This document shows positions 671 to 21,642 of a DNA stretch of 33,077 bases, one piece after another; within the stretch, counting starts at the first letter, position 1; each line of letters opens with the position of its first letter. This DNA is from Bacteriovoracaceae bacterium. Lineage in GTDB: Bacteria > Bdellovibrionota > Bacteriovoracia > Bacteriovoracales > Bacteriovoracaceae. Made by a program: the position numbers and the translations under genes. Below the pieces are notes generated by a model. The model was not told where the DNA came from and did no database searches. It saw only the letters and a program-made list of their open reading frames with translations. The stretch is taken from contig JBFGZE010000027.1 of the NCBI GenBank assembly GCA_041586955.1, forward strand, positions 1-33,077, read 5' to 3'.

Positions 671-733
671 AGCGTCATTGAGTGTGAATCCCTACGAACT
701 ATAAATATAGGGTGCAGATCTTTTGAGAAGGCC

Positions 734-882
734 TAACTGAGAAATTCCTCTACTTCGGCCCCCATCTTCCATTCACTCACCGAAATTTTCCAAAAAAATG
801 ATCATTTTAATTTAAAAATCAGCTTTTGGAGCGGGGAAGTATTGGTCAAAAAAAGCAAATTGACGCCTCATTTATCCTATTC
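734..882 (+). repeat. ~150-bp repeat copy 1 (putative IS91-family oriIS end)
   Basis: taactgagaaattcctc...ttttggagcggggaagtattggtc...gcctcatttatcctattc followed by tttc; closely similar to the other copies. Confidence 0.95.
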
Positions 883-930
883 TTTCCTGAAAAAAGGGTA
901 TAGCAATTTATGACATCTCAATTGAGAAAG

Positions 931-962
931 AAAAAAACCTTTGGACAAGCGCCCAAAGGTTG
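931..962 (-). terminator. Intrinsic terminator of the 971-1330 gene
   Basis: aaacctttgg/ccaaaggttt stem with an A-run on the + strand (U-tract on -). Confidence 0.7.
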
Positions 963-970
963 ATTAATTT

Positions 971-1330
971 TTAGATGTGGCAAAGATGCTCTGGTGCCGT
1001 AATACGATATAAGCTAAGGCCTAGTGGCGCGTAATTATCTTGGTCAATCTCAAGAACGATCTCTTGCTCTACATGTCCATAATCATGAAAAACTTTAATA
1101 AAGACCAGCATTTCTTTCGGTTGGCCTTGATCAATTGTCACATCTTTAATTTGATTAACCCGAAGGTGATATTCTGGGCCAAAGAGAAGATCATGGCATT
1201 TTTGCTGCAGGGATTCTTCAATAAAGGTCTTAAGTGTATCGTTTGGAGTGATAATGGGGTTATAGCTCAACCCGGCAAAGGCGCTTTGGATAGTGAAGAG
1301 TAGGGATAGGGTGACCATCAGCTTTTTCAT
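971..1330 (-). CDS. Secreted hypothetical protein
   Basis: Sec signal MKKLMVTLSLLFTIQSAFA, GGAGG RBS, own terminator. Confidence 0.8.
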   Translation of the reverse strand: MKKLMVTLSLLFTIQSAFAGLSYNPIITPNDTLKTFIEESLQQKCHDLLFGPEYHLRVNQIKDVTIDQGQPKEMLVFIKVFHDYGHVEQEIVLEIDQDNYAPLGLSLYRITAPEHLCHI

Positions 1331-1533
1331 TTCTTACCTCCTGGTAATGTTTTTGATTTGTAAACATTGAATATAAAATAAAGGGGAAAATCACAATCAC
1401 AATATGAAAGCTAACATATTTCTAACAGAGATATTACGTGGAGTAGGTCCTTGTATCGCTTAGCGATATCCCATTGTCTTTAATTACAAAGAAAATGTCC
1501 TTTGCGTTGCAATCGTCCAGAACAAGGGAATTC

Positions 1534-1646
1534 ATGGAGAGAAATAAATCTAAGACCATTATTGCCTTCTTAGCTGGGCTCCTGGGCCTTCTCTATATAC
1601 TTAACCCACTGCAGGACTGATTGAATTTATTCCAGATAATATTTTT
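1534..1646 (+). pseudogene. DUF1232/YkvA-like fragment, frameshifted and truncated at repeat copy 2
   Basis: MERNKSKTIIAFLAGLLGLLYILNP then, in a shifted frame, TAGLIEFIPDNI; the expected ..IGxxDD/E continuation is replaced by the repeat. Confidence 0.65.
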
Positions 1647-1789
1647 TAACTGAGAATTTCCTCCACTTTGGACCCCATTTTCCATTCACTCACCGAAATT
1701 TTCCAAAAAAATGATCATTTTCATTTAAAAATCAGCTTTTGGAGCAGGGGAGTATTGGTCAAAAAATGTAAATTGGTGCCTGATTTCTC
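1647..1789 (+). repeat. ~150-bp repeat copy 2 (right end degenerate)
   Basis: taactgagaatttcctcc...ggagcaggggagtattggtcaaaaaatgtaaattggtgcctgatttctc. Confidence 0.95.
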
Positions 1790-1953
1790 GTCAGTTTTTA
1801 ATTATCAGCAGCAATCTTCAAGAGGAGTGGCAAGCTTGAAAAATTCTGGCATTATCGCTGTCTAAAGACATATAAATAAAACTGAGCCCTTTATTCTTGA
1901 AAGGATACATGGACAAGTCATCACAGGTGCAAAGTGTCCTATTTTGGTGAGAC

Positions 1954-2949
1954 ATGATTAAGATAGCTTTTTACCAAACCCATAAATACGAAAAAGACAA
2001 GTTTTTTGAACTTGCACAGAAGAATAATATCGAGATTATTTTTCTTGAGCCTAGATTAACTGCTCAAACAGCAATTCTTGCCAAGGACTGTAATGTCGTC
2101 TGCTCTTTTGTAAATGATCAAGTCGATATTGAAACTCTCGACATTTTAAAAAAACAGACAAATATTAAATTGCTGGCACTCAGATCAGCAGGCTTTAACC
2201 ATGTCGATATTGAACATGCCACAAAGCTGAAAATTCCTGTCGTAAGGGTTCCCTCTTATTCTCCTAGTGCAATAGCTGAACATACGGTGTGCTTACTTTT
2301 GGCCCTCAATAGAAAAGTGCATAAGGCCCACTTAAGAATTCAGTCTTTAAACTTTTCTCTGGATGGACTCGTCGGTTTTGATCTGGCCGGAAAAACGATC
2401 GGTGTCATAGGAACGGGGGCCATTGGTTCAAAATTTGTTCGAATAATGAAAGGATTCAACTGTAATGTACTTGCCTACGATTTAATAGAATCAAATCATC
2501 TTAAGGAATATTGCGATTATGTTTCTCTTGACGAATTAGTAATGAAATCAGATGTCATTTCCCTACATGCTCCTTTGACTAACGACACTCATCATATTTT
2601 GAATCAAAAACGTCTTCACCAAATGAAAAAAGGTGTCATCATCATCAATACTAGCAGAGGTGCTTTAATCGATACCAAGGCCCTCATAACAGGGCTTAAA
2701 ACGGCTCAAATAGGGGGAGCTGGGCTCGATGTTTACGAAGAAGAAGAGTCTATTTTCTTTCATGATCTATCAGATCAAGTGCTACAGGATGATGTACTGG
2801 CACGTCTAATTTCCTTCCCTAATGTTTTAATTACCTCACACCAGGCATTTTTAACCAAAGAGGCCTTATCTCAAATTGCAGACACCACCATCAACAATAT
2901 CATAGAGTATTTTTCTTCAGGAAAATTGAATAATCAAGTCCAGTTTTAG
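1954..2949 (+). CDS. ldhA: D-lactate dehydrogenase / D-2-hydroxyacid dehydrogenase
   Basis: ALRSAGFNHVD, VPSYSPSAIAEH, GVIGTGAIG, NTSRGALID, GLDVYEEE, TSHQAF motifs. Confidence 0.9.
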   Translation: MIKIAFYQTHKYEKDKFFELAQKNNIEIIFLEPRLTAQTAILAKDCNVVCSFVNDQVDIETLDILKKQTNIKLLALRSAGFNHVDIEHATKLKIPVVRVPSYSPSAIAEHTVCLLLALNRKVHKAHLRIQSLNFSLDGLVGFDLAGKTIGVIGTGAIGSKFVRIMKGFNCNVLAYDLIESNHLKEYCDYVSLDELVMKSDVISLHAPLTNDTHHILNQKRLHQMKKGVIIINTSRGALIDTKALITGLKTAQIGGAGLDVYEEEESIFFHDLSDQVLQDDVLARLISFPNVLITSHQAFLTKEALSQIADTTINNIIEYFSSGKLNNQVQF

Positions 2950-3400
2950 CAAACTTGATTTGATTAAAAGCTTTAATCAAATCTTTCCTGGTAATAATAC
3001 CAACAAGTTTTCCATTATTCACGACTGCCAATATTTCAAAGTTTTTTGTCTCTAATTTATGTCACTCGTAATTACCACCAATTTGATAACTAAACATTTT
3101 AGTCAATCCCTTATGAATTGAGGTGCAAAGGAGATCATGAAATGGAGATGGCCTTATCCCCCTATCTGTATAAAGAAAACTCAAGTTCTTCGAATGACAA
3201 TCATTATTTCCAATTAAAAGGTTAAACCAAAACCATTTTAAAAACTGTGATAAGTCTTTTAGGGGAATGGCGCTATTGGCCTTGATTAATTTTTTTTGGC
3301 AAAAAGTTTTGGCCCTCCATCTTCTTCATATTTTTTCTAGAAATTAATCCCTCCGTTTGGATTCTTATAAAAATGGTGAGATATAAATGGAGGTTTTTTT

Positions 3401-3745
3401 ATGCTTAATCCAGAAATAGAAGTATAAAAAAAGATTGAGGTTCTTGCCCATGCTCAAAAATCAGGTAATATCTCATTTTCTTGTCAATATTATGGAGTCT
3501 TAAGGCAAGTTTTCTATAAAAGGTCTTGTATCGAAGAGGTCTGGGCCCGAAATCCAGCCGAGCCGAACACCTATGGGAATTGAAGAGAAAATTATCTACC
3601 TAAGAAAAAAATACAACTTTGGCCAAGAGAGAATTTGTTGGTATCTTCTCCTTATCACAGCATAAAAAATAGCAAGAGGTGGTGTTCGACAGGTTCTTCT
3701 TAGGAATGGTCTCAATAGGCTTTCAAAAAGTAAGCGGAAAATACT
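3401..3745 (+). mobile_element. IS481-family transposase 5' remnant (pseudogene), truncated at repeat copy 3
   Basis: MLNPEIEV*KKIEVLAHAQKSGNISFSCQYYGVLRQVFYK and TPMGIEEKIIYLRKKYNFGQERICWYL...GGVRQVLLRNGLNRL (HTH region); stop and frameshifts; no DDE domain. Confidence 0.75.
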
Positions 3746-3895
3746 TAACTGAGAAATTCCTCCGCTTCGGCCCCCATTTTCCAATTACTCACCGAAGTTT
3801 CCAAAAAAAAATGATCATTTTAATTTAAAAATCAGCTTTTAGAGCAGCGGAGTATTGCTCAAAAAATGTAAATTGATGCCTCATTTATCCTATTC
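3746..3895 (+). repeat. ~150-bp repeat copy 3
   Basis: taactgagaaattcctccgcttcggccccc...gatgcctcatttatcctattc. Confidence 0.95.
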
Positions 3896-4001
3896 TTCGT
3901 TTATGCAATGAAGTGATCTTAAGTACTATCAGGAATATAACGAACCATGTAAATATCACCAAAAGAGAGACAACTTCCAATCTATTAAATAAAATCAACC
4001 T

Positions 4002-4796
4002 ATGAACAGGTTAATTAATACAATATTTATTATCTTATTGGCCTTTGGCCTATCAGCGGCCGAGCCCTCCAGTTGTTTTCAAGAGCTTAATCTATTGATT
4101 ACCCATCAAGAGATTAAGACTTATGATTATGATATTTATAGATACCGTGAGGCAGAATCATTAATAGAGCTCGAGCGACTTTATGGAGATTCCAATTTAT
4201 TTGATGTCTATTCCCGCCTTCTTGAAAATGACATTAAAAATATCAATGATCATACGCTTAATATTATTCATAAAAACCAACTTGATGACGATGGTGTCGA
4301 GTTAACTGAAGTGCAATCTATTTTTGATCGCCTTATCGATAATTATAACTATGCCACTAAAAATATTCATAAAAGTATTTGTGATAGAAATGGGTTTTGT
4401 TATGCGCGTGCCACCATGGCGCATATGATGGCCCTGAAAAGGGGAATCAAGAGTAAAAACCTGAAAAAGATTTGGGTACTAGGGCAATTAAAATCAGATA
4501 TTAATGATATTTGGAATTATCACGTCGCCTTGGTCATAAAGGGAAAAGAAGATTCCTATGTACTTGATACCAGCTTTGGCCTCAAGACACTTAGCGAATT
4601 TCATGCACATTTTCAAAAAACAGAGAATCATTATGGTAAGCGGCCCTTGTCGGTCATGACGCAAGCAAGCCGTTATCAAATTGGTCATTCAGGGAGTTAT
4701 AATAGTTTTGAACTATTTCCTCCTCCGGAGCAGGATTGGAATTTTGGTTTTTACTATCGTGCTTTTGAAGAATTGCAAGAGGGCCATAGTAAATAA
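4002..4796 (+). CDS. Secreted protein-glutamine glutaminase (deamidase) family protein
   Basis: Signal peptide; GFCYARA, KIWVLG, WNYHVAL, YVLD give a Cys-His-Asp triad pattern as in Chryseobacterium protein-glutaminase. Confidence 0.75.
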   Translation: MNRLINTIFIILLAFGLSAAEPSSCFQELNLLITHQEIKTYDYDIYRYREAESLIELERLYGDSNLFDVYSRLLENDIKNINDHTLNIIHKNQLDDDGVELTEVQSIFDRLIDNYNYATKNIHKSICDRNGFCYARATMAHMMALKRGIKSKNLKKIWVLGQLKSDINDIWNYHVALVIKGKEDSYVLDTSFGLKTLSEFHAHFQKTENHYGKRPLSVMTQASRYQIGHSGSYNSFELFPPPEQDWNFGFYYRAFEELQEGHSK

Positions 4797-4853
4797 TGAA
4801 AGCTGTGCAGATTTTTGTTGGCATTTAATACTCATCCATAAAGTCGATGGGCC

Positions 4854-5002
4854 TAACGGAGAAATTCCTCCACTTCGGCCCTCATTTTCCATTCTCTCAC
4901 CGAAATTTTCCAAAAAAATGATCATTTTCATTTTAAAATCAGCTTTTGGAGCAGGGGAGTATTGCTCAGAAAATGTAAATTGGTGCCTGGTTTTTCCTAT
5001 TC
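4854..5002 (+). repeat. ~150-bp repeat copy 4
   Basis: taacggagaaattcctccacttcggccc...ggtgcctggtttttcctattc followed by tttc. Confidence 0.95.
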
Positions 5003-5450
5003 TTTCGAAATGCCATTTGGGTATATCTTTCCATTGGTATTAGATCACAAAACTTAGAGAGAGTTACATCTATAATCATACCATCCCTATAATTGGATGA
5101 GGGCACTATGCTTGGTAGAGCAGCAGTATTAATAATAACACCATGACAATTACCACAATTATATTTAAGCCGCTTGTTGCGTTGGATATAGTAGCGTTTG
5201 GGGATAACTTCTAATTTCTCTGTCGTATCATACAGGCCAGACTCCTTCATATTGTTCCCGCAGCATGGGCACTTATTAAGTTTCACGGGAAAGATTGTAT
5301 CCTCCCTTACTTCGATATTTGGGTATAGCTCAGAAATTCGTTTTATTTGACTCTTCTCTTTCTTGTCCTTTTTTCCTTCCCTTAATTGGATAATTTACTT
5401 TCGGAACCTTTTTCTTTTTTCCTCGACGAATTTCTTCTCGCTCAATAAGA
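5003..5450 (-). mobile_element. IS66-family transposase (TnpC) remnant, truncated at repeat copy 4
   Basis: CPCCG...TEKLEVIPKRYYIQRNKRLKYNCGNC...VTLSKFCDLIPMERY matches the IS66 zinc-finger region; upstream part has stops; the ORF reads into the repeat. Confidence 0.8.
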
Positions 5451-5721
5451 ACTCTGGCAACAGTAATTAAATTTTCAAGAGAAGTGTCCAGAGAGCTTAA
5501 TGATTGGCCTAGAAAAAAGGCCTACAAGGCCTGACATTTACGATGTTGCATAAGGGGGCGTATGTTTCTGATGATTTATATTCAATACGAGTCAATGGCT
5601 TGTCTTGGCCTTATGAATTCTCAACAGAATCATAACAATAAAAAATGATTTTAGCTAAATTGTCTTTTTCTACAAATTTAATATGTTAAAATAAAAAAAA
5701 CAATCATTTAGAGGTATATAT

Positions 5722-6516
5722 ATGAAGGTTACACTTAATCTAACTAAATTGTTAAAGGAAAAAGAGATAACAAAAGAGGATTATAATCGATTTGTTGCAC
5801 TCGCAAAAAAAGACACAAATTCACATGCCTTCTCAATGTTAATTGTATTTGCCTGTATCGCAATAGCAGTTGGATTTGTTGGTGTTAATGCAGACCTTTT
5901 CTTTAGAATTATTAAATTAATTCACGATGCTATAGGTGGTCAGGGATTAAAACTTTTAGGAACTGCACTTCTTCTTTTTATAGGTAGCAAAACTAATAGT
6001 GGGTTTTTAATTGGCTTGAGCCCGTTTATGATTTTAAGTTTACTGGGAGGCTCAACATTTTATCGTCACGCTTCTTATTTTATTGCGATTAAAGAACCAG
6101 CTATTTCGATTGTTGTTTTTTCAATTCTTGCCCTTATTGGATTATTTGTTTCTAAAAAGGTTGAGTTTGATAAAGAGAGATTGGCTTTGATATTTTCTAG
6201 GGTTTGTTTAATTATCGTAAACTTGGGATTTTGGATTGGTTCACTTTGGGGAAGTAAAATAGGCTCAACTGGTAATAAAATTTCTGATACAATTCTAACT
6301 GTACTTTGGGCCATCGCTCTTCTTTTATGTGGTGCTTGGGGAGCAAAAGAGGGTAGGAAGTTTGTTGTAAACACTTGTGCGGTTTTTGGATCGATTCATT
6401 TTTATACTCAGTGGTTTGAACGGCTCGGAGCATCTCCTGGTTCATTAATGGCCGCTGGTGTAATAGCTCTTTTGCTAATTTATGGTTTAAGGTCTTATAA
6501 TCAAAAAACAACTTAG
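5722..6516 (+). CDS. Multi-pass membrane protein of unknown function
   Basis: About 8 hydrophobic segments; GAGG RBS. Confidence 0.8.
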   Translation: MKVTLNLTKLLKEKEITKEDYNRFVALAKKDTNSHAFSMLIVFACIAIAVGFVGVNADLFFRIIKLIHDAIGGQGLKLLGTALLLFIGSKTNSGFLIGLSPFMILSLLGGSTFYRHASYFIAIKEPAISIVVFSILALIGLFVSKKVEFDKERLALIFSRVCLIIVNLGFWIGSLWGSKIGSTGNKISDTILTVLWAIALLLCGAWGAKEGRKFVVNTCAVFGSIHFYTQWFERLGASPGSLMAAGVIALLLIYGLRSYNQKTT

Positions 6517-6628
6517 TATATAAGCGCGGTAAGCACTCAAAAAAGTAAATCAATCATTTTTCAGATAACTCAAAGTAAAACAGAAAATGGTGTAGAGGCC
6601 CTCTAACATTATTAACCGGTTAAAATTC

Positions 6629-6673
6629 TTATTGTTTAAGATTGTGGATGCTCACCTCGGGTAGTTCGGGCAT
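6629..6673 (-). pseudogene. 5' stub of an Fpg/Nei (MutM-like) DNA glycosylase gene
   Basis: RBS (aagagg) + MPELPEV, the conserved Fpg/Nei N-terminus; stop after 14 codons. Confidence 0.55.
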
Positions 6674-6723
6674 TTGTCTTTTAACCTCTTAAGTTGATTC
6701 AACTTTATGCTAAGGGTAAAAGC

Positions 6724-6871
6724 TAACTGAGAAATTCCTCTACTTCGGCCTCCATTTTCCATTCACTCACCAAAATTTTCCAAAAAAATTATTATTTTAA
6801 TTTAAATATCAGTTTTTGGAGAGGGGAGTATTGCTCAAAAAATGTAAATTGATGCCTCATTTATACTATTC
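6724..6871 (+). repeat. ~150-bp repeat copy 5
   Basis: taactgagaaattcctctacttcggcc...gatgcctcatttatactattc. Confidence 0.95.
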
Positions 6872-7347
6872 TTATTACCAATCGGTAGCACCATTTGCCA
6901 ATTATGTGCTCTCAACAATTCAAAAGGCGAGTTCTATCACACCCTCCCCCTAAAGAGGTGTCCAATTTGTGGGAATCCTGAATTTCCTTTCTTAGGTCTT
7001 AAAGTGGGTCTGGAGATATCAAAGGCCTTTCAAGTAAAAATATCAATTGAGCAAGCATTAAAAAATGGACAATCACTTGTTGCCAAACAAATGAAAATCT
7101 CCCGGTACACAGACAAATCGTCTCGAAATCCATAGGGAACTAGATCTTTATAGTACAGAACTTTTTATTGGGAAATAAGGCCGCGCATTTTCCAAACTCA
7201 TGGCGGTAAAGAGTGAGCAGGAACATCATGTTAGATGCTCCTATACAAACTAATAAAATTCGCAGGTGATATACGTGCATGAAAGGTGTTGAAGATATTT
7301 TTACAACTCGGGACCGCTATCCTCAAGCAAACCCGAGTTTATTTTGT

Positions 7348-7749
7348 TCATAGATTATTTGGATTCCCTCTTGAGCACCAAGATTCCCTTACCCCGACGG
7401 TGCAAGCTCTTCGCCATTTTTGCTCCCAGGATCCTGTATTTGGGTCAAAGCAAGTCACTCCATTAACCCTTACCCATTCTGAACATTCAGAGAGAAAACT
7501 ATTAGGATTTTCTGTATGGCAGACTCTTTCTTGATCACAGTCCGGCCCCATATTTCCATGACGAGTGACGGAATTATACCAACAGGCATTTTCGCATTGA
7601 CGTCTATAAATATCGGCCAAACGGCCGGCAAAGACGCAGGAAACACCACCCTGTTTTTTCCATTCAGTACACTTATATTCTGATGCAATGCCCTGAGTTC
7701 CAAACGTGAGAAATATTAAAGCAATTAGATTAATGAGATTATTCTTCAT
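7348..7749 (-). CDS. Small secreted cysteine-rich protein with an internal repeat
   Basis: Start reassigned to MKNNL (GGAGGGAGG RBS, signal peptide); CTEWKKQGGVSC / CSEWVRVNGVTC repeat. Confidence 0.75.
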   Translation of the reverse strand: MKNNLINLIALIFLTFGTQGIASEYKCTEWKKQGGVSCVFAGRLADIYRRQCENACWYNSVTRHGNMGPDCDQERVCHTENPNSFLSECSEWVRVNGVTCFDPNTGSWEQKWRRACTVGVRESWCSRGNPNNL

Positions 7750-8262
7750 TTTTGCCTCCCTCCTTAAATAAATCATGCGAAATCTATAACCCAAGGTTTT
7801 ATTTGGCAACCGATGACCCGGCGCGGGACACCCTTTTACCTCAAATTTCACCACGAGAGGAGGCTGATGACATTAACCGCTGCCTGTAAGAGGTAGCTTA
7901 AGGACTTTAAAATAATAAAGTAATGCTTTGTTTTTATAATTTTATTACAACGCAGGCCGGCCGTCCCAAAAAATTATTCTGGGCACAAAACAACTTTTTT
8001 GAGTAATACTCACCTTCCTCCCATAGAACCGATTTTCAAATTTAAATAACAATTTACTAAAAAATAATTCGGTGGTTTTAGGAAAACGGCTTGTAGTAGC
8101 AAAAATTCAAATTGATAAAGTGGAATAGGCCTAAGAAAACGGTGGAAATAAAAGCACCTATAAGGCCGGATAGTACTGATTTTATAATTGATCATCAATC
8201 AGTATAATTTTTCCTCTTACCACCAGCGTTCTCTGCACACAAAGTCCCCGCCTCTTTAATTG

Positions 8263-8300
8263 AAAAAGAACTTGGGGGAAGGGGAAACATGCCCCAAGTT
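8263..8300 (-). terminator. Intrinsic terminator of the porin gene
   Basis: aacttgggg/ccccaagtt stem, U-tract on the minus strand. Confidence 0.65.
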
Positions 8301-8317
8301 ACTTAGTTTTTAAATGA

Positions 8318-9448: not shown

Positions 9449-9612
9449 GTTTACCTCTAGAATAGTGTTTTAAAAAGTTTATTCTTAAAATCATATTACA
9501 TTTAGACAAGAAATAATTTGCCCGACTACATAATTTATTTAATTCAGATTTTCTTAAGTTGATTCAAGTCCTAAATTGTCCACACAATATAATTTGGGGA
9601 GAAAAGGTCCAT

Positions 9613-9813: not shown

Positions 9814-9816
9814 AGA

Positions 9817-12612: not shown

Positions 12613-12626
12613 AAAAGGTATGGAAT

Positions 12627-13028
12627 ATGTTAAAAAGTGATTTTGTTTTATTAATCGTTGATGATGAACCACAAATCCGTGAAGTCCTTACACAATACTT
12701 CGAACTTAGCGATTACGCGGTAGAATCTGCTTCAGGCGGTAGAGAGGCCCTCGATATTGTAAGAAAAAAGAAGATTAACTTTATCATTTCGGATGTGCGT
12801 ATGCCCGATGGAGATGGTGAGGAGTTACTCGATGAAGTCAGAAAACTTCATCCAGACCTACCAATCATTGTGATGGTCACTGGTTTTGCTGAAATTTCAA
12901 AAGCGGAAGCTATTAAAAGAGGAGCTCTTGATCTTCTCGTCAAACCAATTAATATTAATTTTCTGGAGGATCTTGTAGAGGACGAGTTCCAGAGAGCTTC
13001 CCAATCAGAAGGATCTACTAAAATTTAA
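12627..13028 (+). CDS. Single-domain response regulator (receiver)
   Basis: LIVDDE, SDVRMP, VTG, KP motifs. Confidence 0.9.
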   Translation: MLKSDFVLLIVDDEPQIREVLTQYFELSDYAVESASGGREALDIVRKKKINFIISDVRMPDGDGEELLDEVRKLHPDLPIIVMVTGFAEISKAEAIKRGALDLLVKPININFLEDLVEDEFQRASQSEGSTKI

Positions 13029-13187
13029 CATTATTTCCAAATTAGTTGTGGCCTAATTAATATAAAGTTAGCTCAAAAGCATTGGATCACAGTACAAACT
13101 ATTTTGCGTTACAAAAGGCGTAAGTTGGGCCCTTGGTCCGTATTGAATATTTAAATATGAAAGTTTTAACCTCACCTGACGATCTCA

Positions 13188-13269
13188 GATTATTTTAATT
13201 TAAAAATTAGCTTTTGGAGCAGGGGAGTATTGCTCAAAAATGTAAATTGATGCCTGATTTCTCATATAT
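13188..13269 (+). repeat. Repeat copy 6 (3' half only)
   Basis: gattattttaatttaaaaattagcttttggagcaggggagtattgctcaaaaatgtaaattgatgcctgatttctcatatat. Confidence 0.9.
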
Positions 13270-13326
13270 TTTATGAATAACTTGATCATTTGCTAAGTCT
13301 TTTCCGGTGCAAAATAGCCTCAAAGT

Positions 13327-13731
13327 TTACTCCTGCAAGTTGCTAAAAACATTTTTTATTTTTTGTTCAAGAATTTCTCTGTTAAATGGTTTGACGATAT
13401 AATCATTGGCCTTTAACCGGATGGCATCAAGAATAAGTTCCCGCTCAGACTCTGTTGTTACCATAATAACAGGAGTTTTTTCATATATTGGTTGATTTCG
13501 TAATTCTTTGAGTAATTCAATACCACCCATTATAGGCATATGAATATCAATAAAAATTAAAGAGAAGGGTCGACTGCTATCGCTGGCCTGATTAAGCACA
13601 ATTAGGCCAGCGTGGCCATTTTTAGCTTCGGAAATATTGCTATGACCTAGTTCTTGTAATATTTCCGCCATTAGAGTGCGAGTAGATGCCTGATCATCAA
13701 CTATTAGAATTTTTAAGCTGGCCATGCTCAC
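13327..13731 (-). CDS. CheY-like single-domain response regulator
   Basis: ILIVDD, IDIHMP, MVTTE, YIVKPF. Confidence 0.9.
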   Translation of the reverse strand: MSMASLKILIVDDQASTRTLMAEILQELGHSNISEAKNGHAGLIVLNQASDSSRPFSLIFIDIHMPIMGGIELLKELRNQPIYEKTPVIMVTTESERELILDAIRLKANDYIVKPFNREILEQKIKNVFSNLQE

Positions 13732-13795
13732 TTATAGTCCTCCCGGCATTATATTCCTTAATTGTAAGGAAGGTTCATTTTAAAAACCACTAAAA

Positions 13796-13899
13796 ACCTA
13801 AATTTTTCAAAAAAATTATTATTTTCATTTAAAAATCAGCTTTTGGAGTAGGGGAGTATTGCTCAAAAAATGTAAATTGATGCCTGATTTCTCTTATAC
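13796..13899 (+). repeat. Repeat copy 7 (3' two-thirds)
   Basis: aaatttttcaaaaaaattattattttcatttaaaaatcagc...gatgcctgatttctcttatac followed by tttc. Confidence 0.9.
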
Positions 13900-14173
13900 T
13901 TTCCTGATATTGTTTTTTGGCCGTTATTCTTAATTGTTCATTTTAAGTATAAAAATCATATCAGGTTGTCGCATATTAGGATTGCCCAAAATATTTTTTT
14001 TACTCTAGCATGTCTTATGTACAATAATTTTTCTGTGCCCTCTTATTACCTCTATAATGACTCTTTTTTACAAACAATTAATTAGTTGTTGATGCGTCGC
14101 GCAGGAGGCTGTATGACAAATCTAATATAACTAATTTTAACGACGCCAAGAGGCATTAGTGGAGATTTTTACG

Positions 14174-14515
14174 ATGAAAAACTTTTTAATGGTCTTATTT
14201 ATGAGTTGCGCATTTTCTTTCTCAATCAAGGCCAAATGCGTAGGCAGTGTCAAACAAATCACCGGTACAAGCCCTGCTGAAGCTAAAGTTGACTTGCAAA
14301 TTACCTATGAGGACACCACAATCAAGAAACTACAAGGCGAATTAGATAATGCCTTCTTCTCAGTGACAGTAAATAGGGAAAACAAAATGGCCTTCTACCT
14401 TATTTCCAGTGGGCCTGATTATCTAAATGGTGTGACTTCTCGTTCCTCTTGGCCAAATGCCCGAGTGACTATGGTTCAACCACAAAGAACCTTAATAATT
14501 GAATGTGGTCGTTAA
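14174..14515 (+). CDS. Secreted hypothetical protein
   Basis: GGAG RBS, signal peptide MKNFLMVLF...IKA, Cys near both ends of the mature chain. Confidence 0.75.
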   Translation: MKNFLMVLFMSCAFSFSIKAKCVGSVKQITGTSPAEAKVDLQITYEDTTIKKLQGELDNAFFSVTVNRENKMAFYLISSGPDYLNGVTSRSSWPNARVTMVQPQRTLIIECGR

Positions 14516-14660
14516 TGACCTATTATTATGGGTGGGACAAATTAGCATGACGATACGTACGTTGAATTATTAAATTTAATTTTCCCACGCCCAAAAAAAT
14601 TAATATTTAAAAAAGTTAACGTAAATTTGGTGAAGATACAGGTATAGATCACTATTTTTT

Positions 14661-15671
14661 TTAGGGGTCACAACAATAGGCCTTAACAGTAATAAAATTG
14701 CCATCGTTAGGTCGCCTCCCCCTGATTTGATTGAAAATAATCTCTATTTCCATATTTTCTTTTCTATTATTTGAAGTTTTAAAATAATGCCCCCTTAATT
14801 CTTTACCGGCCGGACAAGTGGCCGTGGCCCAGGCAGGTCTCCAAGCGGTAGCTTCTGAAGTCCAGGCACAATTGACAGGAGGAAAAGATCCTCCAGGTAA
14901 AGGTTTACATACAAGAGTTCCGTCGGCATTTATTTTTTCTATATATTCTCCATTCGGACATTTCATGGGGTCTGTGTAATTTACAAACCGAGGGTCAAGG
15001 ATAGTTGTTACTTTATCAGTAAAGAAGTCATTAAGATGCTCTGTCGATACCCCATCAGAATTTTTAAGGGCGGTTACCGGGTTAAAGCCTATAAGGTCAC
15101 ACTTTGATGTAGCAGGGTCTAGAACTCCACCAATTGAGTTACATGCCTGTTCAACAGATGTTTCAATAGCATTTTCAGCTGAGGAATAACATTTAATTAA
15201 CTCATTTGATCCATTCACTTCAACTTTTATTGGTATTTTATAAGATTTTATTTTATTACCTTTGATAAGTTTACTCATTTTCTCTAAGGTGACTTCTACT
15301 TGAGCTTCTCCATAACTTCCCACGATATTTACGTCAACAACCCTTAAGTCTTGTAAGAGGATTAGCCTTGAACCATAAGTTTGGCCTTTAACAAAAATAT
15401 TATTTCCCACCTTATTTTTAATGGCGGCGAGCTCCTCCCCCTCCATAATCACTGTTCCCACCCCAAGGCTGTTGACGCAGGATTGAGAGTCGAGCAAGGC
15501 CTGAGATATATGATTCAAAATAGAGCTTGTTTCTAACCCTGTTTCCGCTCTTTTTTGGGTGATCGCCTGCTGATTGGTAATATTCATTAATAATAGTGAT
15601 AGAGCTCCTATCAGGCCAGCGGCGACCAAGACCTGAATAATCGAGAATCCGTTTTGATTTGTCATTTTCAT
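14661..15671 (-). CDS. Type IV pilin-like protein (prepilin cleavage motif) with Cys-rich C-terminus
   Basis: NQNG|FSIIQVLVAAGLIG class III signal (Q at +5). Confidence 0.75.
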   Translation of the reverse strand: MKMTNQNGFSIIQVLVAAGLIGALSLLLMNITNQQAITQKRAETGLETSSILNHISQALLDSQSCVNSLGVGTVIMEGEELAAIKNKVGNNIFVKGQTYGSRLILLQDLRVVDVNIVGSYGEAQVEVTLEKMSKLIKGNKIKSYKIPIKVEVNGSNELIKCYSSAENAIETSVEQACNSIGGVLDPATSKCDLIGFNPVTALKNSDGVSTEHLNDFFTDKVTTILDPRFVNYTDPMKCPNGEYIEKINADGTLVCKPLPGGSFPPVNCAWTSEATAWRPAWATATCPAGKELRGHYFKTSNNRKENMEIEIIFNQIRGRRPNDGNFITVKAYCCDP

Positions 15672-16089
15672 CTGTTAATTTTAACATAAAAGGCAATTCT
15701 GTTTTAATTTATAATAAATTTTTTAGTTGATCCTTAATTTGAGCGATTAAGTCCAAATTCTGCCATTTTCTGTTGGCACACATAATTTATTTTATTTCTC
15801 CTCTGTTATTTAAAAGCGAGAAATAAAAGGTTTTTAATTGAGCGACTATGCCTTCTTTCAAAAAGTCACACTCTATCCATGACCATTTTTTGGTGAAGAA
15901 AATATTGCCTTACGATTCCATTTTTATGAGCATGCAACATATTTATCTATGAGAAGACTATACGATTGAAGAATCACTACTTTTTCTCGCAGTTTTAGGG
16001 GGTAATGATTTCCTGTTTGACAAATATTAAAAAAATCTTTGACGAAAATCCTTTTAGTCCGAAACAGCTATATGAACCTAGGGCCAATT

Positions 16090-17769
16090 ATGAATTCAAT
16101 TAAATATCTATATATTGTTTTTACATTTGTTATTTCCTTTTCATGTTCACATGAAAGGCCAATAGATCGCTCTACCGCCAGTATTAATAAGACTAGTCAT
16201 GTAGATGGAAGCGAAAACATTCCTCAATCAATAAAGACAATGCTTGATGAGGAACAAAATCTTCATGTTAAAGGATTATGGCCTGCCGGTTCATTTTCAT
16301 CAGATATCTCTCCAGAATATGTTCCCGAAGTAAACCCAAAGTTTCCCATTGCCTATTATTTAATCCCGTCAGAGGATGCTAATTTTCTCTCCGCCAAATC
16401 CTTAGACCCTAGAGTTCTTAAACAAATCTCTATTCAAGACGATTCAGGAAAGAAATACTATAAATTATTTGTCCACCCAGAAAGTGAAGAACATTATTCA
16501 TTTTTAAAAGAGGTATATCAATACATCTCACAGGAAAATAGTGAACATATCGCTTCGCCAACTTCCAGTTATAGGTCACTAGTCTTATGGAATAAATATA
16601 ACTCTGCAAAAAAACCTTTTATTGCCAAGGTTAGTCTAGACAGAAACATCATTAGAAACATTGATAGATTAGTTTCATCTAATGAAGTGGAGCGTTCTAT
16701 CGCCAATCAAAATGCTTTTAATGAAATGGGGGAAAAATCTTTAGAGGAAATGAATGCAAAAATTTTTCCTGAATCTGCGGGACTCACGATTGCAAAATCC
16801 CATAGAGGGGAGCCAAGTAAATTAGGTGGCCAACTCATCAGGGAGATCCCAGATGAAGTTTGGACTGGTCATAAAAAATGGGTTGCCTGGGCAACTCTAA
16901 TTAGTCCAGAAAGAGGCCCTCCCATGATCCTTAAAGTGATAAAGGCCAGTGGATTATCTACTCGAGATTTTATCAATACGTATATGATAGAGGGCTATAT
17001 GACAATGTTCGAAAAGCTTTCTTTAAAAACAGGAATTAATTTTGAACCCCATAGTCAAAACTTAGGGTTTGAACTTATGCCTGACTTCTCCCCCACAGGC
17101 AAGTGGATCCATAAGGATTTTGGCGGTGTATGGCCGGACATTATAACACTTGAAAAATCGAAAGGACCACTTAGAGCTTATATGGAAAAAGGTAATGCTT
17201 TAAAATATAAATTCAAAGGAGGAAGAGCAAATGCAATCGGCAGCTACGTTTTTTTCTATAAAAGACAAATATTTGACTTTTTGATTAAAGAGCTAGAAAT
17301 ATATAGTAAGGACTTATTGAGCTCCGATATAGACTTCCTCAACAGAAAAATAAACACTCGCTTTGTAGCGTTAGTGAATAAACATTTAAACCTCAACCTA
17401 ACAGAAGTCCCTACGATGAAAACTTATAAAAAAATACAAAAGCTGGTTAATGGTGCAACAAGGCTTGATTCAAAGATAAAAAAGACTGAAATAAAGGACC
17501 GTAACGCTATAGGAGAGTATATCCAATCTAAAGCTTTAAATGACGAGTGGGTAACACTTAGTGACAGCAAAATTACTCAGGCCAGGTACTATATTACTGA
17601 TAATGGAGTCTACGAGTTAAGAGAAGGTATAGTCACAGGATTCGCTCTCTTTAATGACTTAGAAATGGCAAATTATAAACATTATGGGCCAAATATGAAA
17701 AAAATATCAACAAGGCCATACACTGGTGAATGCTCTTTCTTACTAACCTCAATCCTTTCCACTCTATGA
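16090..17769 (+). CDS. IucA/IucC (NIS synthetase)-like protein with lipoprotein signal
   Basis: HPES, PTSSYRS, AKVSL, REIP, EPHSQN, HKDFGG; lipobox-like SFSC; start probably MNSIK (16090), the ORF opens at 16039. Confidence 0.7.
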   Translation: MNSIKYLYIVFTFVISFSCSHERPIDRSTASINKTSHVDGSENIPQSIKTMLDEEQNLHVKGLWPAGSFSSDISPEYVPEVNPKFPIAYYLIPSEDANFLSAKSLDPRVLKQISIQDDSGKKYYKLFVHPESEEHYSFLKEVYQYISQENSEHIASPTSSYRSLVLWNKYNSAKKPFIAKVSLDRNIIRNIDRLVSSNEVERSIANQNAFNEMGEKSLEEMNAKIFPESAGLTIAKSHRGEPSKLGGQLIREIPDEVWTGHKKWVAWATLISPERGPPMILKVIKASGLSTRDFINTYMIEGYMTMFEKLSLKTGINFEPHSQNLGFELMPDFSPTGKWIHKDFGGVWPDIITLEKSKGPLRAYMEKGNALKYKFKGGRANAIGSYVFFYKRQIFDFLIKELEIYSKDLLSSDIDFLNRKINTRFVALVNKHLNLNLTEVPTMKTYKKIQKLVNGATRLDSKIKKTEIKDRNAIGEYIQSKALNDEWVTLSDSKITQARYYITDNGVYELREGIVTGFALFNDLEMANYKHYGPNMKKISTRPYTGECSFLLTSILSTL

Positions 17770-18602
17770 AAACTCTAGACCCACAAAATATTTCTTACAT
17801 ACAAAATCACCCTAAGTTAACTCAAGACCTTGAAACGATCATATTTATCCATGGCCTACAAAGTTCAAAAGACACTTTTTTAAGCACCATACAATCTGAC
17901 TTATTCACTAATTTCAATTGTATCTCTATCGACCAACGCGGTCACGGCAAGACTCCTCCTCTCGGAGATTCATATACAGCAGAATCGATGGCCCAAGATA
18001 TATATCATTTTATCACGTTCTATAATTTGTCAAAAATTCATCTCGTGGGGCACTCCATGGGGGGCAGAACGGCAATGGCCTTTCTTAAACTGTATCCCCA
18101 TTTATTAAAATCCATTACAATAGAGGATATGGGTGCTGAAATCAGACAGGTCCCTTCAGCTTTAAAAGACCAGAAAAATTTACAATTATTTAATGAACTA
18201 AGAAAGCTTCCCGTATTTTACTCTACAATAGAGGAGATAAGCGAAGTATTATCTCCCCTGTACTCTTATAGTGATAGTTTGATAAAAAGAAAAGTTGTGA
18301 AAAGCAAAGAAGGTTATTCTTTGAGTTTCTCCCCTTCTATTTCCGTCCGATATGGTTATCAAGCGAATAATTTAGATTATACCCATTATCTATCAACGGC
18401 CTCAGTTCCCATACAATTCCTTCAGGCCAATCCATCAATTGGTATTGGGTCCGCAATGACGGAAGAAAGTATTGCCAATATAAAAAAAAATATACCAAAC
18501 GCAAAAATCGAGTTTTTTCCATCAGCATGGCATTCAATTCACAAATCAGATGCAACTATGTTCAATGAGAAATTAAAAAACTTTATATTAAGATCCGTAT
18601 AA
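17766..18602 (+). CDS. Alpha/beta hydrolase (YbfF-like esterase)
   Basis: IHG, DQRGHG, GHSMGG nucleophile, WHSIH; ATGA overlap with the upstream gene. Confidence 0.85.
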   Translation: MKTLDPQNISYIQNHPKLTQDLETIIFIHGLQSSKDTFLSTIQSDLFTNFNCISIDQRGHGKTPPLGDSYTAESMAQDIYHFITFYNLSKIHLVGHSMGGRTAMAFLKLYPHLLKSITIEDMGAEIRQVPSALKDQKNLQLFNELRKLPVFYSTIEEISEVLSPLYSYSDSLIKRKVVKSKEGYSLSFSPSISVRYGYQANNLDYTHYLSTASVPIQFLQANPSIGIGSAMTEESIANIKKNIPNAKIEFFPSAWHSIHKSDATMFNEKLKNFILRSV

Positions 18603-18867
18603 ATTATGGGTGCAATATGTGCCAATGCGAGAGGCCTTATCATACTTTCACAAGGAAAGGGTTTTAAGTTCACAGAATGATGCTATAGGACTAATTTTTT
18701 GACTGGGTTAAGTAGGGCAGAAAGTCAAATATAGTATCAGTTGTGTCAATTAACTTATATATTAGTATGAAAGCATGCATACCTTTCTCGCCGGTAAAAT
18801 TCTTGGCGTATTGTTTTAGGACCAACCTTCTACGGCCGTATTACCCCTTTTGCTCATAAGTGGCCTT

Positions 18868-19186
18868 TTCAAACGAGTCATCGCCCTGGTTCCAGGCCCA
18901 CGGCAAAACCTAAAAAACCAAAGCTAAAAACAAAAATGTTTATGGAACCCCTTGGGCAGAACTTTTAAAACGAGTTTTTAAATATGAAGTCAATTATTGC
19001 GATCATTGCGGTACAAAATTGACACTAGTTGCCACCATCACCAGTCCAGGCGTCTGCAAAAGAATACTGAAACATTTCAACCTCGAAACCGAGTATGTAA
19101 GAACTCAACGGCCTCGCACACCACCCGAGGTCGGAGACAATCTAACTCTTGACGATTATTTATTTAATCAAGAGCAGGCCTGGTAA
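18868..19186 (+). mobile_element. IS91/ISCR-family rolling-circle transposase C-terminal remnant (pseudogene)
   Basis: KRVIALVPGPRQNL, then in a shifted frame PWAELLKRVFKYEVNYCDHCGTKLTLVATITSPGVCKRILKHF...RPRTPP, the typical IS91/ISCR C-terminal WxxLLxRVF-CxxCG-RxPP pattern; not in the ORF track. Confidence 0.85.
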
Positions 19187-19220
19187 GTGCTACCGCAGAA
19201 TAACATCCTAATTCCGACCT

Positions 19221-19368
19221 TAGCTGAGAAATTCCTCCACTTCGGCCCCCATTTTTCCATTCACTCACCAAAAATTCCCAAAAAAATTATCATTTTAATT
19301 TAAAAAACAGCTTTTGGAGGAGGGAAGTATTGCTCAAAAAATGTAAATGGATACCTGATTTATTATAG
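19221..19368 (+). repeat. ~150-bp repeat copy 8, directly downstream of the IS91-like transposase remnant
   Basis: tagctgagaaattcctccacttcggccccc...ggatacctgatttattatag. Confidence 0.92.
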
Positions 19369-19708
19369 TAGACAAAAAAGTTTCATTTGTATCCTTTGGT
19401 AACTTTACAGAAGCGGCTCAACACCAGAAATATAGAGGCAAGGTTTCTAGTCCGTTCTGATTGGCTTGCCAAAAAACGAACCTCGCAGTTCGATAAGTTG
19501 TCTGAAGCTTCAATATTAAAAATATTTCTGTGCTGTAATTTGACTCCTACATGTTCAGCTATAGGTTAACTGGAAGTTGTCAGAAATAGATGATTGGCAT
19601 CTATTGTAATCACAATGACCAATCTTTTCATAAGTCTTAGACAATAATCAACAAGCACAGCAACCCCGCATTGTATTTATTGTAATTCACTGCTTTCGCG
19701 ATTAGGCA

Positions 19709-19802
19709 AATTAGTTAAGTTAGCTAATTGTCTATATAAAATATTGTATTTATGTCATTTTAGCAAAATAACTAAAAAATTAACTGATTTGGTTAGCTGA
19801 TT
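19709..19802. promoter_or_regulatory. Cluster of TTARCTRATT motifs (putative operator) upstream of the 19831 gene
   Basis: Near-palindrome aattagttaa-g-ttagctaatt (19709-19729) and direct copies at 19780 and 19793. Confidence 0.4.
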
Positions 19803-19830
19803 GTGTTAGTATGGTTTTAAAGGAGGCAGC

Positions 19831-20280
19831 ATGAAGGCAAAAATTAACGGAATTGAAGTAGAAGGAACCCCGCAGGAGATAGCAGAATTAATTGAGATAC
19901 AAGAAAAAAGTAGCAAGTCTAAAAGGCCGAAAAGCTCATGGGAAGTGTTTGAATTGAAAGATGTGGGCCTAGATACTTTCTTTAATGGACTCTCCGCTCC
20001 GACTAGAAAATTAATAGAAGTAATCTTAGATGCAAAAGGCCACATTGTTGAAGATGAACTCTATATGAAAACTTCTAGTGATGGAACCAATGACGGGAAA
20101 AATGCGAGAGGAATTTTGAGTGGGATTACTAGAAGATGCGGAACACTTTCAGGAAAGAAAACAAAGCTCATTTCTTGCTACAAAAAAGACGACAAATGGT
20201 ATTTTAACTTTCCTGCTAAGCCTGACTCAAAAGAAACCCATGATGATAATTTTAACTTACTCACAAGCTATCTTAAATGA
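19831..20280 (+). CDS. Hypothetical protein, possibly a winged-helix DNA-binding protein
   Basis: Strong AGGAGG RBS; LSAPTRKLIEVIL...ELY...ARGILSGITRR plus a beta hairpin suggests wHTH (weak). Confidence 0.65.
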   Translation: MKAKINGIEVEGTPQEIAELIEIQEKSSKSKRPKSSWEVFELKDVGLDTFFNGLSAPTRKLIEVILDAKGHIVEDELYMKTSSDGTNDGKNARGILSGITRRCGTLSGKKTKLISCYKKDDKWYFNFPAKPDSKETHDDNFNLLTSYLK

Positions 20281-20423
20281 CATATTTGGGCAGAGGGAGT
20301 TTTTATAAATATTTGGTAAAAGCTCCAAGGACCCAAAATTACTTAGATTCTGGCCATGTAATAATCTGTAGTACTTTTGAAAAATCGATCAACAAAATAG
20401 GTGAGTTACAAAGCGCTCATCAC

Positions 20424-20639
20424 CTCCACCATTCATGGCCCCGTGCGCACCAGCTTCCTAAAGGCAGCCGGTTTTTCTCGTCTGAAAATTTAAATTTCTG
20501 TGCCTTTTTTAAAACGGGAGGACTATCTCTGAACGCTCAGGAGCCTGCTTTGCAACCTCGCTCCTTGTCGACGGGGTAGAGATGAACAAGGGGCCATAGA
20601 CTGACTTAGATTCCTACCCCGCTGGGCCATGTGGTGGAG
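20424..20639 (-). ncRNA. Candidate structured RNA with retron msr-msd-like layout
   Basis: Terminal inverted repeats 20424-20441 / 20624-20639, AGC just after the 5' arm on the minus strand, three internal stems; more GC-rich than its flanks. Confidence 0.4.
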
Positions 20640-20937
20640 CTGTTTAAGTACAGAGATAAGTAACAAAAAATCTGTGGTGTAACATTATCTTGTTACTATC
20701 ACGGTTTCTTTGAGAGAAGATGTGAATACGGGCGGCTAGGGATATTTTCATGTAACAAAATACGTCCAAATGTTAATATTGGGTAGATATTATTACATAA
20801 GCAGGAATGTGGTAAAATGTAAAAAAGTGCACCCAGTAAAGATGTGCGGGTTTGGGTTATTACATATAGAAGAATTGGAAAAAAGACCATTTTTCACGAC
20901 AAAAGATGTCTTTGATAAGCTTGAGCTGGTTTTTTAG

Positions 20938-21516
20938 TCAATACTGGTCCTTTAAAAATATCACAGTCTTTGTTAGCCCCTCGCGATCAGTTACTGAATG
21001 CAGGGACTCTATATACTCATCTAAATATTCTATTAAACCTGTGTGAGATGTATTGGCATAATCATCAGGATGACTCAAGTGAATTTCTCCTCTTGGTTGG
21101 AGGACTCTTAAAATTTCGGCCATCGTCGCTTGAGAAATAGGAGCATTTTCTAAGCTGACTTTATGGACACTGTCTGTTGGTAAAGGAATTGATTCACCCT
21201 TGCCATAGACCCAGCGAGGGATTTTCCTACCAGGTTCACCCGTAGTGCTAGTTAGGGGATAAGGGTTAATATTGATGGCATCAATATATTTTCCCTCTCC
21301 GCCAATATCGATATGAATTAATTGATTTTTATTTTTGGCATCTCGTAGAAGTTGAAGTGCCTTTCTTTCGGCATTTGGGGCATGATGATTAATTATATTA
21401 ATTACCTCATTGCAACTGAGCTTTGCAGTGAGATTTGAGGGGCCACGATAATTGTCCTGGTGGAGACTTGAGCACCCTATTAAAAAAGCAAGAATTATGA
21501 AAAAGTAACTTCTCAT
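20938..21516 (-). CDS. Lipoprotein with class I SAM-methyltransferase-like domain
   Basis: Start reassigned to MRSYF; lipobox LIGC; IDIGGEG, GESIPLPTDSV, EILRVLQPRG. Confidence 0.65.
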   Translation of the reverse strand: MRSYFFIILAFLIGCSSLHQDNYRGPSNLTAKLSCNEVINIINHHAPNAERKALQLLRDAKNKNQLIHIDIGGEGKYIDAININPYPLTSTTGEPGRKIPRWVYGKGESIPLPTDSVHKVSLENAPISQATMAEILRVLQPRGEIHLSHPDDYANTSHTGLIEYLDEYIESLHSVTDREGLTKTVIFLKDQY

Positions 21517-21590
21517 AAAAGGCCTATCGGTAAATAAAAACCACTTGTTTAACGAATGTCCAAAAAAGTTCAAGAAAAAGGACTTCTCGG

Positions 21591-21642
21591 TGAGAAATTC
21601 CTCCACTTCTGCCTTAATTTGTCATTAATTCACCGATTTTTT
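21591..21642 (+). repeat. Repeat copy 9 (diverged 5' third)
   Basis: tgagaaattcctccacttctgcc...cattaattcaccgattttt. Confidence 0.7.

Follow-up and report, generated by a model that had tools for sequence, protein, structure and literature searches.

The 33,077-bp window analysed here is the whole of contig C27 (JBFGZE010000027.1) from an assembly of a Bacteriovoracaceae bacterium (GCA_041586955.1; 3,459,555 bp in 194 contigs, 88% complete), and it carries a co-oriented array of repeat units of about 152 nt. The best explanation, which we consider probable, is that these units are miniature right-end (oriIS-side) pieces of an insertion sequence (IS) of the IS91/ISCR family, and that the array arose via one-ended rolling-circle transposition and is now fossil. 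The identity of the units, their link to a transposase remnant, their clustering and the exact junctions that they form are direct observations. Rolling-circle transposition of IS91 begins at the right (ori) end and finishes at the left (ter) end or at look-alikes of it, and about 80-90 bp of each end are enough (PMC13181058, PMC3189936).

Repeat finding in the window returned a 157-nt direct-repeat family (seven copies) with sub-families of 53 nt (eight copies) and 52 nt (seven copies), all on the + strand and at the positions given by an earlier sequence-only reading of this DNA. A nine-way alignment confirms the copies and, together with motif anchoring, shows that all nine reported starts are real. 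Six units, delimited by anchoring on conserved start and end motifs, are full and 150-153 nt long, namely copy 1 at 734..885 (152 nt), copy 2 at 1647..1798, copy 3 at 3746..3898, copy 4 at 4854..5005, copy 5 at 6724..6874 and copy 8 at 19221..19371, all on the + strand. Their pairwise identity is 85% on average, with a range of 81-89%. The other three + strand copies are partial: copy 6 (13186..13272) and copy 7 (13817..13902, start approximate) are 3' halves that retain about 90 nt each and are 94% identical to one another, and copy 9 (21590..21642) comprises only the first ~50 nt. The count of nine in the sequence-only reading thus stands for six full units, while the copies that it placed at 13188, 13796 and 21591 are fragments, and the divergent 5' part that it ascribed to the copy at 13796 turned out to be flank, as the stretch before ~13817 is 83% identical to contig C5. 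It had also placed every copy on the + strand. This holds for nine of the ten window copies (two-sided binomial p about 0.02), but it missed the tenth, a degraded inverted copy of the internal part only at 8089-7995 on the - strand (nhmmer E 1.6e-5, model positions 33-124).

All six full units have a common left boundary. They start with TAAC, or with TAGC in the case of copy 8, and continue with TGAGAA or GGAGAA, so that TAAC+(T/G)GAG opens all five solo full units and the equivalent position inside the parent copy, copy 8, reads TAGC+TGAG. On the right, TATTCTT+N is the end of the four best-kept copies, and TAT(T/A)CTT+N ends six of the nine copies retaining a 3' part; next to the ori end of an IS91/ISCR element a specific tetranucleotide of the CTTG/GTTC type would be expected. 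The terminal sequences are TATTCTTT in copies 1 and 4, TATTCTTC in copy 3, TATTCTTA in copy 5 and TATACTTT in copy 7; the right ends of copies 2 and 8 are decayed. As far as can be read from these edges, the units combine an intact right end with one defined internal left end, like the miniature products described in PMC3189936.

The search for inverted pairs in the window yielded no terminal inverted repeats at the unit ends, and inspection by eye of the unit flanks revealed no target-site duplication; the units agree in both respects with IS91/ISCR elements. Two hairpins per unit, CCAAAA..TTTTGG and GAGCA..TGCTC, had been proposed from the sequence, and imperfect palindromes near the terminus would be expected of an IS91/ISCR right end. 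Both pairings can be drawn, but DNA folds of the six full units reach z values of only -0.4 to -2.6 against shuffles, and alignment folds contain two compensatory pairs on the + strand and none on the - strand. Scans of the window returned no Rfam match and no tRNA or tmRNA, and a scan of 600-7000 found no consensus promoters or terminators within the units and fewer promoter-like sites than in shuffles. A candidate sigma-54 promoter (TGGAGC..TTGC) was rejected by eye, its spacing being 4 nt too long.

The clustering of the repeat is far beyond chance. With a profile built from seven copies, nhmmer finds 11 copies on all 194 contigs of the assembly, 10 of them on the 33-kb contig and one on C181, which is a 3' half only at base 1 of a 1.9-kb contig; a short-word search detected no further partial copies at any contig end of the assembly. 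The repeat is not scattered over the genome, in keeping with the expectation of the sequence-only reading. Forty related genomes, all of other genera, gave only matches of 20-32 nt (E 8e-4 to 8e-3), which we take as chance, and four pattern scans (two IUPAC patterns, each against public genome and metagenome contigs) gave no hits, although such exact patterns miss diverged relatives. A blastn comparison of the unit with a plasmid collection returned one 31-nt match inside a methyltransferase gene, likewise taken as chance, and a comparison with a phage collection returned nothing. [quoted passage not shown] In a read-level view, which consisted of Logan assembled contigs of three runs, the 3' half of unit 7 (window 13850-13903) is matched by a contig of run X1 that has the variant letters of the C181 copy and leads on into another flank; the assembly may therefore lack at least one further 3'-half copy.

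Copy 8 connects the unit with a transposase. The 3' remnant of an IS91-family transposase gene lies at 18865..19187 on the + strand and corresponds to amino acids 347-362 and 394-458 of a 468-aa relative; tblastn with this relative shows it to span the last ~120 codons, from which an internal stretch is deleted and in which there is a 1-nt indel. Between the stop codon and the start of copy 8 there are 33 nt. The frame of the remnant stops at 19185-19187 and the unit follows from 19221 in the same orientation; copy 8 is therefore the unit still in its original position, where it forms the non-coding right end of an IS91-family element that has lost its 5' part. In a blastn comparison of the window with all other contigs of the genome, positions 18902-19172 match C153:340-69 with 243 of 272 letters identical (89%), and C153 holds the genome's sole Pfam Y2_Tnp (IS91-family) match. 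The transposase pieces in the assembly are C153 (aa 216-459, with stop), C107 (aa 12-96, with stops) and the window remnant. No unit is found downstream of the C153 remnant, where only 50 nt separate the stop from the contig end. The end of C153 (19 nt) is identical to its own sequence ~680 nt upstream, which could reflect an assembly loop or a tandemly repeated remnant.

In the 88%-complete assembly there is thus no intact transposase gene that could act in trans on the units. Since only three transposase fragments are present, the units are no more than 81-89% identical and several of their ends are decayed, the array is a fossil rather than an active system.

Intact relatives of the element exist in the same phylum. 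A search with the C153 remnant against 300 genomes of the phylum (301 with its own genome, which the counts include) gave matches in 44 of 301, the closest in G182 and G107 (66% aa) and in G184 (63%). G182, a one-contig genome, contains an open 468-aa transposase frame, and the G107 gene is cut by a contig end. The two are identical over the 3' 1.1 kb of the gene plus ~200-215 nt past the stop. As G107 and G182 diverge directly after ...GGCTATACTT, we identify this sequence as the right end of the element. The terminus ...CTATACTT is confirmed by an uninterrupted site, GTAACC/TTTTTCC, in the erm neighbourhood of the Psychrobacter plasmid NZ_CP132596.1, and comparison with this empty site suggests that the element of the live lineage includes CTT. 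G107 and G182, which belong to different families, carry this ISCR-like element in identical form. The transposase of the relative scores 301.8 bits against the NCBIfam model 'ISCR element clade Ia' (cut-off 925) and 116 bits against 'IS91 family transposase' (cut-off 125).

Both relatives carry unit-punctuated arrays. On the 5,972-bp contig of G107 there are units at 1167-1319, 3310-3461, 4641-4792 and 5766-5918, all in the orientation of the transposase, with the first attached to the gene. G182 has three co-oriented units in 12 kb, at 3730-3882 (attached to the gene), 5248-5399 and 15491-15643 of its stretch C1:1949000-1968500. The units of G107 and G182 are 100% identical, co-oriented and downstream of the transposase gene; they open with TAAATAAGACCG, 45-48 nt past the stop. 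All seven live units and one plasmid unit end with CTATACTT+N, N being T, C, A, T, T, G and T in the live units. In G184, which belongs to the same family as the present genome, 11 of 20 matches begin at the left boundary of the live unit. The modules between the units are not alike in the two genomes: by NCBIfam, those of G107 (C99:1-5972) encode Erm, CatB and a class D beta-lactamase and those of G182 Lnu, Mph, TetR/Tet(G), a CmlA/FloR-type exporter and Sul1. Upstream of the G182 transposase gene, outside the array, there is also an AadA-type gene.

The window units resemble these live units in length (150-153 nt compared with 152 nt) and at both edges. The left boundary reads CCTAATTCCGACCT before and TAGCTGAG after the edge in copy 8 and, in the same order, CCTAATTTCGGTCT and TAAATAAG in G182, and by this comparison the left boundaries of window and live units are homologous. 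Over the last 40 nt the window units score z values of 2.1-6.6 against the live unit. This terminal score was reached by none of 1000 shuffles for copies 1, 3 and 5, and by 1, 15 and 32 of 1000 for copies 4, 8 and 2, respectively. Similarity over the whole unit is lower, with z values of 1.7-4.5. To judge from these alignments, the end of the unit is the end of the element and bears the terminal motif of the family, and in copy 8, G182 and G107 alike the unit sits just downstream of a Y2 HUH transposase gene on the same strand, as a predicted IS91/ISCR right end should. The proposal that the repeats are transposase-less IS91 ori-side units is therefore borne out by copy 8 beside its transposase remnant and by intact relatives with a homologous unit in the equivalent place. 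The sequence-only reading had named as refuting the case that no intact IS91 transposase gene precedes the repeat; taken literally this is so in the 88%-complete assembly, and in the relatives the homologous unit does follow an intact gene.

The live unit (154 nt) also occurs, unannotated, at 95-100% identity on 19 PLSDB plasmids, from Escherichia (10), Salmonella (8) and Acinetobacter (1). Among the plasmid matches listed, 14 of 15 records have the unit at two places and the Acinetobacter record has it at one. On NZ_CP039857.1 (36904-49057), the one plasmid record inspected, two co-oriented units flank tet(M), the second being truncated. No transposase gene close to that of the element was found in the plasmid collection, where the best relatives, ISCR1-family genes among them, are below 40% identical in amino acids. 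Since co-oriented arrays of solo units recur live in G107, G182 and plasmids, the unit-punctuated architecture is an intrinsic habit of this IS91/ISCR lineage, of which the window is an old, non-resistance version.

The window units are not simple insertions but mark places where unrelated DNA meets. Module 1 (891..1645) is an extra copy (75-77% nt) of C73:~12238-12775. It includes a small secreted-protein gene (971-1330, - strand) and a small membrane-protein gene reduced to its 5' part, which is severed at the left edge of copy 2; the latter gene is whole on C73, where it shows a weak DUF1232 match (18.8 bits, cut-off 23). At this edge the C73 homology runs to ...GATAATATT, and its continuation is missing beyond copy 2. 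A single-domain response-regulator module (13279..13814, - strand) between two 3'-half units is an extra copy (83% nt, 75% aa) of C5:84225-84761. For both modules the homology to the C73 and C5 loci ends at unit edges on both sides, such that the right edges of copies 1 and 6 adjoin the C73-like and C5-like modules and the left edge of copy 7 adjoins the C5-like locus.

Severed sequence also borders other units. The left edge of copy 5 adjoins a 71-nt extra copy (91.5%) of C39 that spans the fpg promoter and first codons (6654..6723, - strand), and at its right edge starts the 3' fragment of a solute-binding-protein gene (6876..7117, + strand; aa 607-691, frameshifted), of which C43 has a 695-aa copy. 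An IS66 tnpC fragment (zf-IS66; 5006..5355, - strand), equivalent to amino acids 100-209 of the intact copy on C134, is cut at the right edge of copy 4, its frame running up to the unit, and an IS66 tnpB pseudogene with stops and a frameshift (21647..21881, - strand) adjoins copy 9. Both IS66 remnants (5006-5355 and 21647-21881) terminate at a unit edge, and an intact IS66 is present on C134. A region of pseudogene fragments at 2957..3668 consists of two pieces, the C-terminal piece of a CBS-domain gene like C137 (2957-3058, - strand) and a frameshifted fragment like a C59 open reading frame (3337-3668, + strand; no family found) that precedes copy 3. The stretch 3504-3749, considered as the N-terminal part of an IS481/IS3-type transposase, was rejected as it has no Pfam support even when read through with X.

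The originals of these captured-looking fragments persist elsewhere in the assembly at 70-91.5% nucleotide identity (blastn), which is in the range of the identity between units (81-89%). Modules are up to 6 kb long and comprise genes on both strands, gene fragments and IS66 remnants. Two intact genes of the array look accessory in a survey of 70 genomes of the family. The D-2-hydroxyacid (lactate-type) dehydrogenase gene at 1954..2949 (+ strand) has matches of at least 45% aa in 15 of them, and the product of the secreted glutaminase/deamidase-like gene (Gln_deamidase_2) at 4002..4796 (+ strand) has matches in eight, all below 30% identity.

These observations can be combined into a mechanism. 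In the parent element the unit would have followed the transposase stop by ~33 nt, its last bases forming the oriIS end. A Y2 HUH transposase acting in trans would nick at this ori end and displace the strand leftwards. If transfer stopped at the conserved internal site, the TAAC/TAGC left boundary, a bare 152-nt unit would move; if this site was missed, the DNA on the left would travel along with the unit in a one-ended transposition. The fragments fused to left edges of units may represent DNA carried along on such read-through. Repeated events at or beside existing ori ends would produce a co-oriented local array, in which the DNA between units could be accessory genes, captured partial gene copies or remains of insertion targets. 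The transposase would later have decayed while the units drifted to their present divergence. Precedents for both outcomes are found in PMC3189936, where early-stop one-ended events of IS801 gave mobilised right-end fragments of 229, 360 and 679 nt ending at an internal tetranucleotide, and run-past events carried 290-1431 nt of upstream DNA. We infer the direction and order of events in the window, as well as the view that modules were carried in and not merely interrupted. Cargo capture is plausible and has live parallels. The sequence-only reading had suggested accretion of cargo in trans; edge-exact severed genes, extra partial copies and the live arrays agree with it, but insertion followed by recombination would give the same picture.

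A more far-reaching version of this mechanism, which we put forward tentatively and consider possible but not probable, is that the 152-nt unit is a dedicated cassette-making module of one IS91/ISCR lineage and as such an integrase-free, strand-specific counterpart of the integron. The internal stop site ~33-45 nt past the gene and the ori nick site would then define excision, the HUH transposase would excise the bare unit, or all that lies between two co-oriented units, as a single-stranded circle, and the circle would re-insert beside another ori end. If true, such a module would, in environmental bacteria as in this window, assemble ordinary chromosomal genes as readily as the resistance genes of G107, G182 and the enterobacterial plasmids with tet(M).

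Several points weigh against an array built by one-ended transposition with capture. The TAT(T/A)CTTN ending is absent from three of the nine copies that retain a 3' part, the unit hairpins are no stabler than those of shuffles, and over the whole unit the likeness to the live unit is weak in some copies (z 1.7 for copy 2, 2.3 for copy 8). The 88%-complete assembly has no intact IS91-family transposase, with three fragments only. Severed genes, those for IS66 tnpC and the solute-binding protein, also form right flanks, so that cargo to the left of the unit needs extra steps, and the missing halves of cut genes were not found in the window. The left breakpoints differ among the three 3'-half copies, which points to rearrangement. 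Replicative capture within the genome should leave donors, and C181 is the sole donor-candidate copy outside the array.

In a rival history the units would again be IS91-type miniature right ends, but would have captured nothing, having made single hops into a pre-existing variable region whose DNA was later deleted and shuffled by homologous recombination between co-oriented units together with other illegitimate events; we rate this history as unlikely, yet as one to be taken seriously. Genes severed on both sides of units and the differing 3'-half breakpoints fit it, as do the junction of copy 7, which falls within a short similarity between flank and unit (microhomology), and the character of the region as a graveyard of IS remnants (IS66 tnpC, IS66 tnpB) and a C59-like fragment. 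Bardaji et al. (PMC3189936) attribute most genomic IS801 fragments to reorganisation and not to one-ended transposition. Contigs of run X2 join unit 1 to unit 2 (766->1680) and unit 3 to unit 7 (3848->13853), as recombination would, but these joints share 42 and 33 identical letters at a depth of ~3, and a k=31 assembly chimera or a module-less variant is equally possible. Deletion alone, however, cannot make extra partial copies of the fpg, C73, C5, C43, C59 and C137 sequences while the originals are kept. Moreover, co-mobilisation would be expected to join a piece of a distant locus to a unit on its left side, as seen with the 71-nt piece, and the live arrays of G107 and G182 hold unrelated resistance genes between identical units.

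The remaining alternatives concern the nature of the repeat itself. Co-oriented repeats of similar size that separate gene modules are also reminiscent of attC-type recombination sites in an integron-like cluster without its integrase. This origin is scarcely credible here, given that the contig has no tyrosine recombinase (the five of the genome are on C18, C81 and C33), no imperfect palindrome spans the unit, covariation is confined to 0-2 pairs, modules of up to 6 kb include both strands and gene fragments, and a unit is attached to an IS91 transposase remnant. The description of an integron-like array lacking integrase and attC sites was correct as to both absences, but the modules do not form tidy cassettes. 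Several + strand genes start 90-150 nt past a unit (1954, 4002), as they would if a shared regulatory leader, promoter or small-RNA gene had been copied before them, and ISCR1 reportedly carries outward promoters (PMC6218425). We consider this very improbable: the Rfam, covariation and promoter/terminator results within the units are negative, minus-strand genes and pseudogene fragments also come after units, and the transposase link explains where the unit came from. Finally, in an 88%-complete assembly of 194 contigs, the first 20 kb of the contig are compositionally marginal (GC 36.9% compared with 39.3% for the genome; tetranucleotide distance rank 91 of 99), as might be seen if the contig were mis-binned or chimeric and the repeat common in the genome of another organism. 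Such an artefact is highly unlikely, since seven homologous stretches lie on other contigs of the bin, namely six loci 70-91.5% identical to pieces of the array and the C153 remnant at 89%; in addition, the contigs of run X1 contain 84% of the words sampled from window 600-7000, and the four public pattern scans revealed no other holder.

With one-ended rolling-circle transposition as the preferred origin, the array can be compared with known systems. It shares with ISCR1 and ISCR2 the IS91-family HUH transposase, an oriIS downstream of the gene and arrays of unrelated genes beside ori ends; an ori region of ~100 bp is said to suffice for one-ended rolling-circle movement of adjacent DNA in PMC13023784, whose 22-mer for the ISCR1 oriIS has, by eye, only TTTAT and CCTAT(A/T)C, with a 4-nt gap, in common with the unit. 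In contrast to ISCR, the cargo here is ordinary accessory or paralogous chromosomal DNA and not resistance genes, the pieces are solo and of 152 nt with a fixed left boundary in a decayed system, and the transposase of the relative stays below both NCBIfam cut-offs and below 40% identity to the best plasmid-borne transposases. IS801 fragments of Pseudomonas syringae are likewise right-end pieces without a transposase gene, with an internal site as their left limit. According to PMC3189936, they are mobilised in trans, and IS801 carries upstream DNA, as is proposed for the window units; they belong to another lineage and host, are longer than the present unit (152 nt) and are scattered, whereas the window units form a tight co-oriented array.

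The live arrays of G107, G182 and the 19 PLSDB plasmids are alike in unit length, left boundary, terminal 40 nt and co-oriented layout past the transposase gene. They differ in that their copies are mutually 100% identical, that G182 has an intact transposase gene and that they flank Erm, CatB, class D beta-lactamase, Lnu, Tet(G), FloR/CmlA-type, Mph, Sul1 and tet(M) genes, and the window units are only distantly similar to theirs. With integron cassette arrays the window has co-oriented repeats between modules in common, but there is neither an integrase nor an attC-type fold, the repeats are an HUH transposon end and the modules are not single promoterless open reading frames. The units resemble MITEs in being short, non-coding, transposase-less and IS-derived, but differ from them in that no terminal inverted repeats or target duplications were seen and the copies form a cluster instead of being dispersed.

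In kind the idea is already known, as one-ended capture by ISCR/IS91 elements and miniature IS801 fragments have been described in PMC3189936, PMC13023784 and PMC13181058. The novelty lies in the lineage, in a unit of fixed length (152 nt) whose boundary is common to three diverged lineages, and in the ordinary chromosomal cargo in an environmental genome; in the open-access literature searched, we found no description of an array of ~150-nt solo ISCR/IS91 units. IS91/ISCR-type elements, best known from clinical plasmids on which they gather resistance genes, would thus also have assembled everyday accessory genes and gene fragments into arrays in a marine bacterium's chromosome, and co-oriented 152-nt end units at junctions of unrelated DNA would be their fossil signature. 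The fixed length and left boundary in three diverged lineages hint at a functional internal stop site. The unannotated plasmid units, which in the one case looked at surround tet(M), may help annotators to explain the contexts of resistance genes.

Other features of the contig stand apart from the repeat. Two IucA/IucC-like (siderophore-synthetase-type) paralogues with lipoprotein-like N-termini are encoded at 16039-17769, inside the array region, and at 25215-26576, outside it. The 5' kilobase of a gene for a 947-aa Big_9/CBM protein, with its upstream region (23812-24818), is 82% identical to C1:8770-9776 of the same assembly and represents a diverged paralogue outside the array. Two ordinary genes with no link to the repeat lie to the right of the array, one for a sigma-54 enhancer-binding activator (31221-32759) and a short one of the ribosome-hibernation/sigma-54-modulation type (27747-28061). 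The last 129 nt of the contig (32949-33077) are 100% identical to C10:59846-59718, which is probably an assembly-graph overlap or a contig-end repeat.

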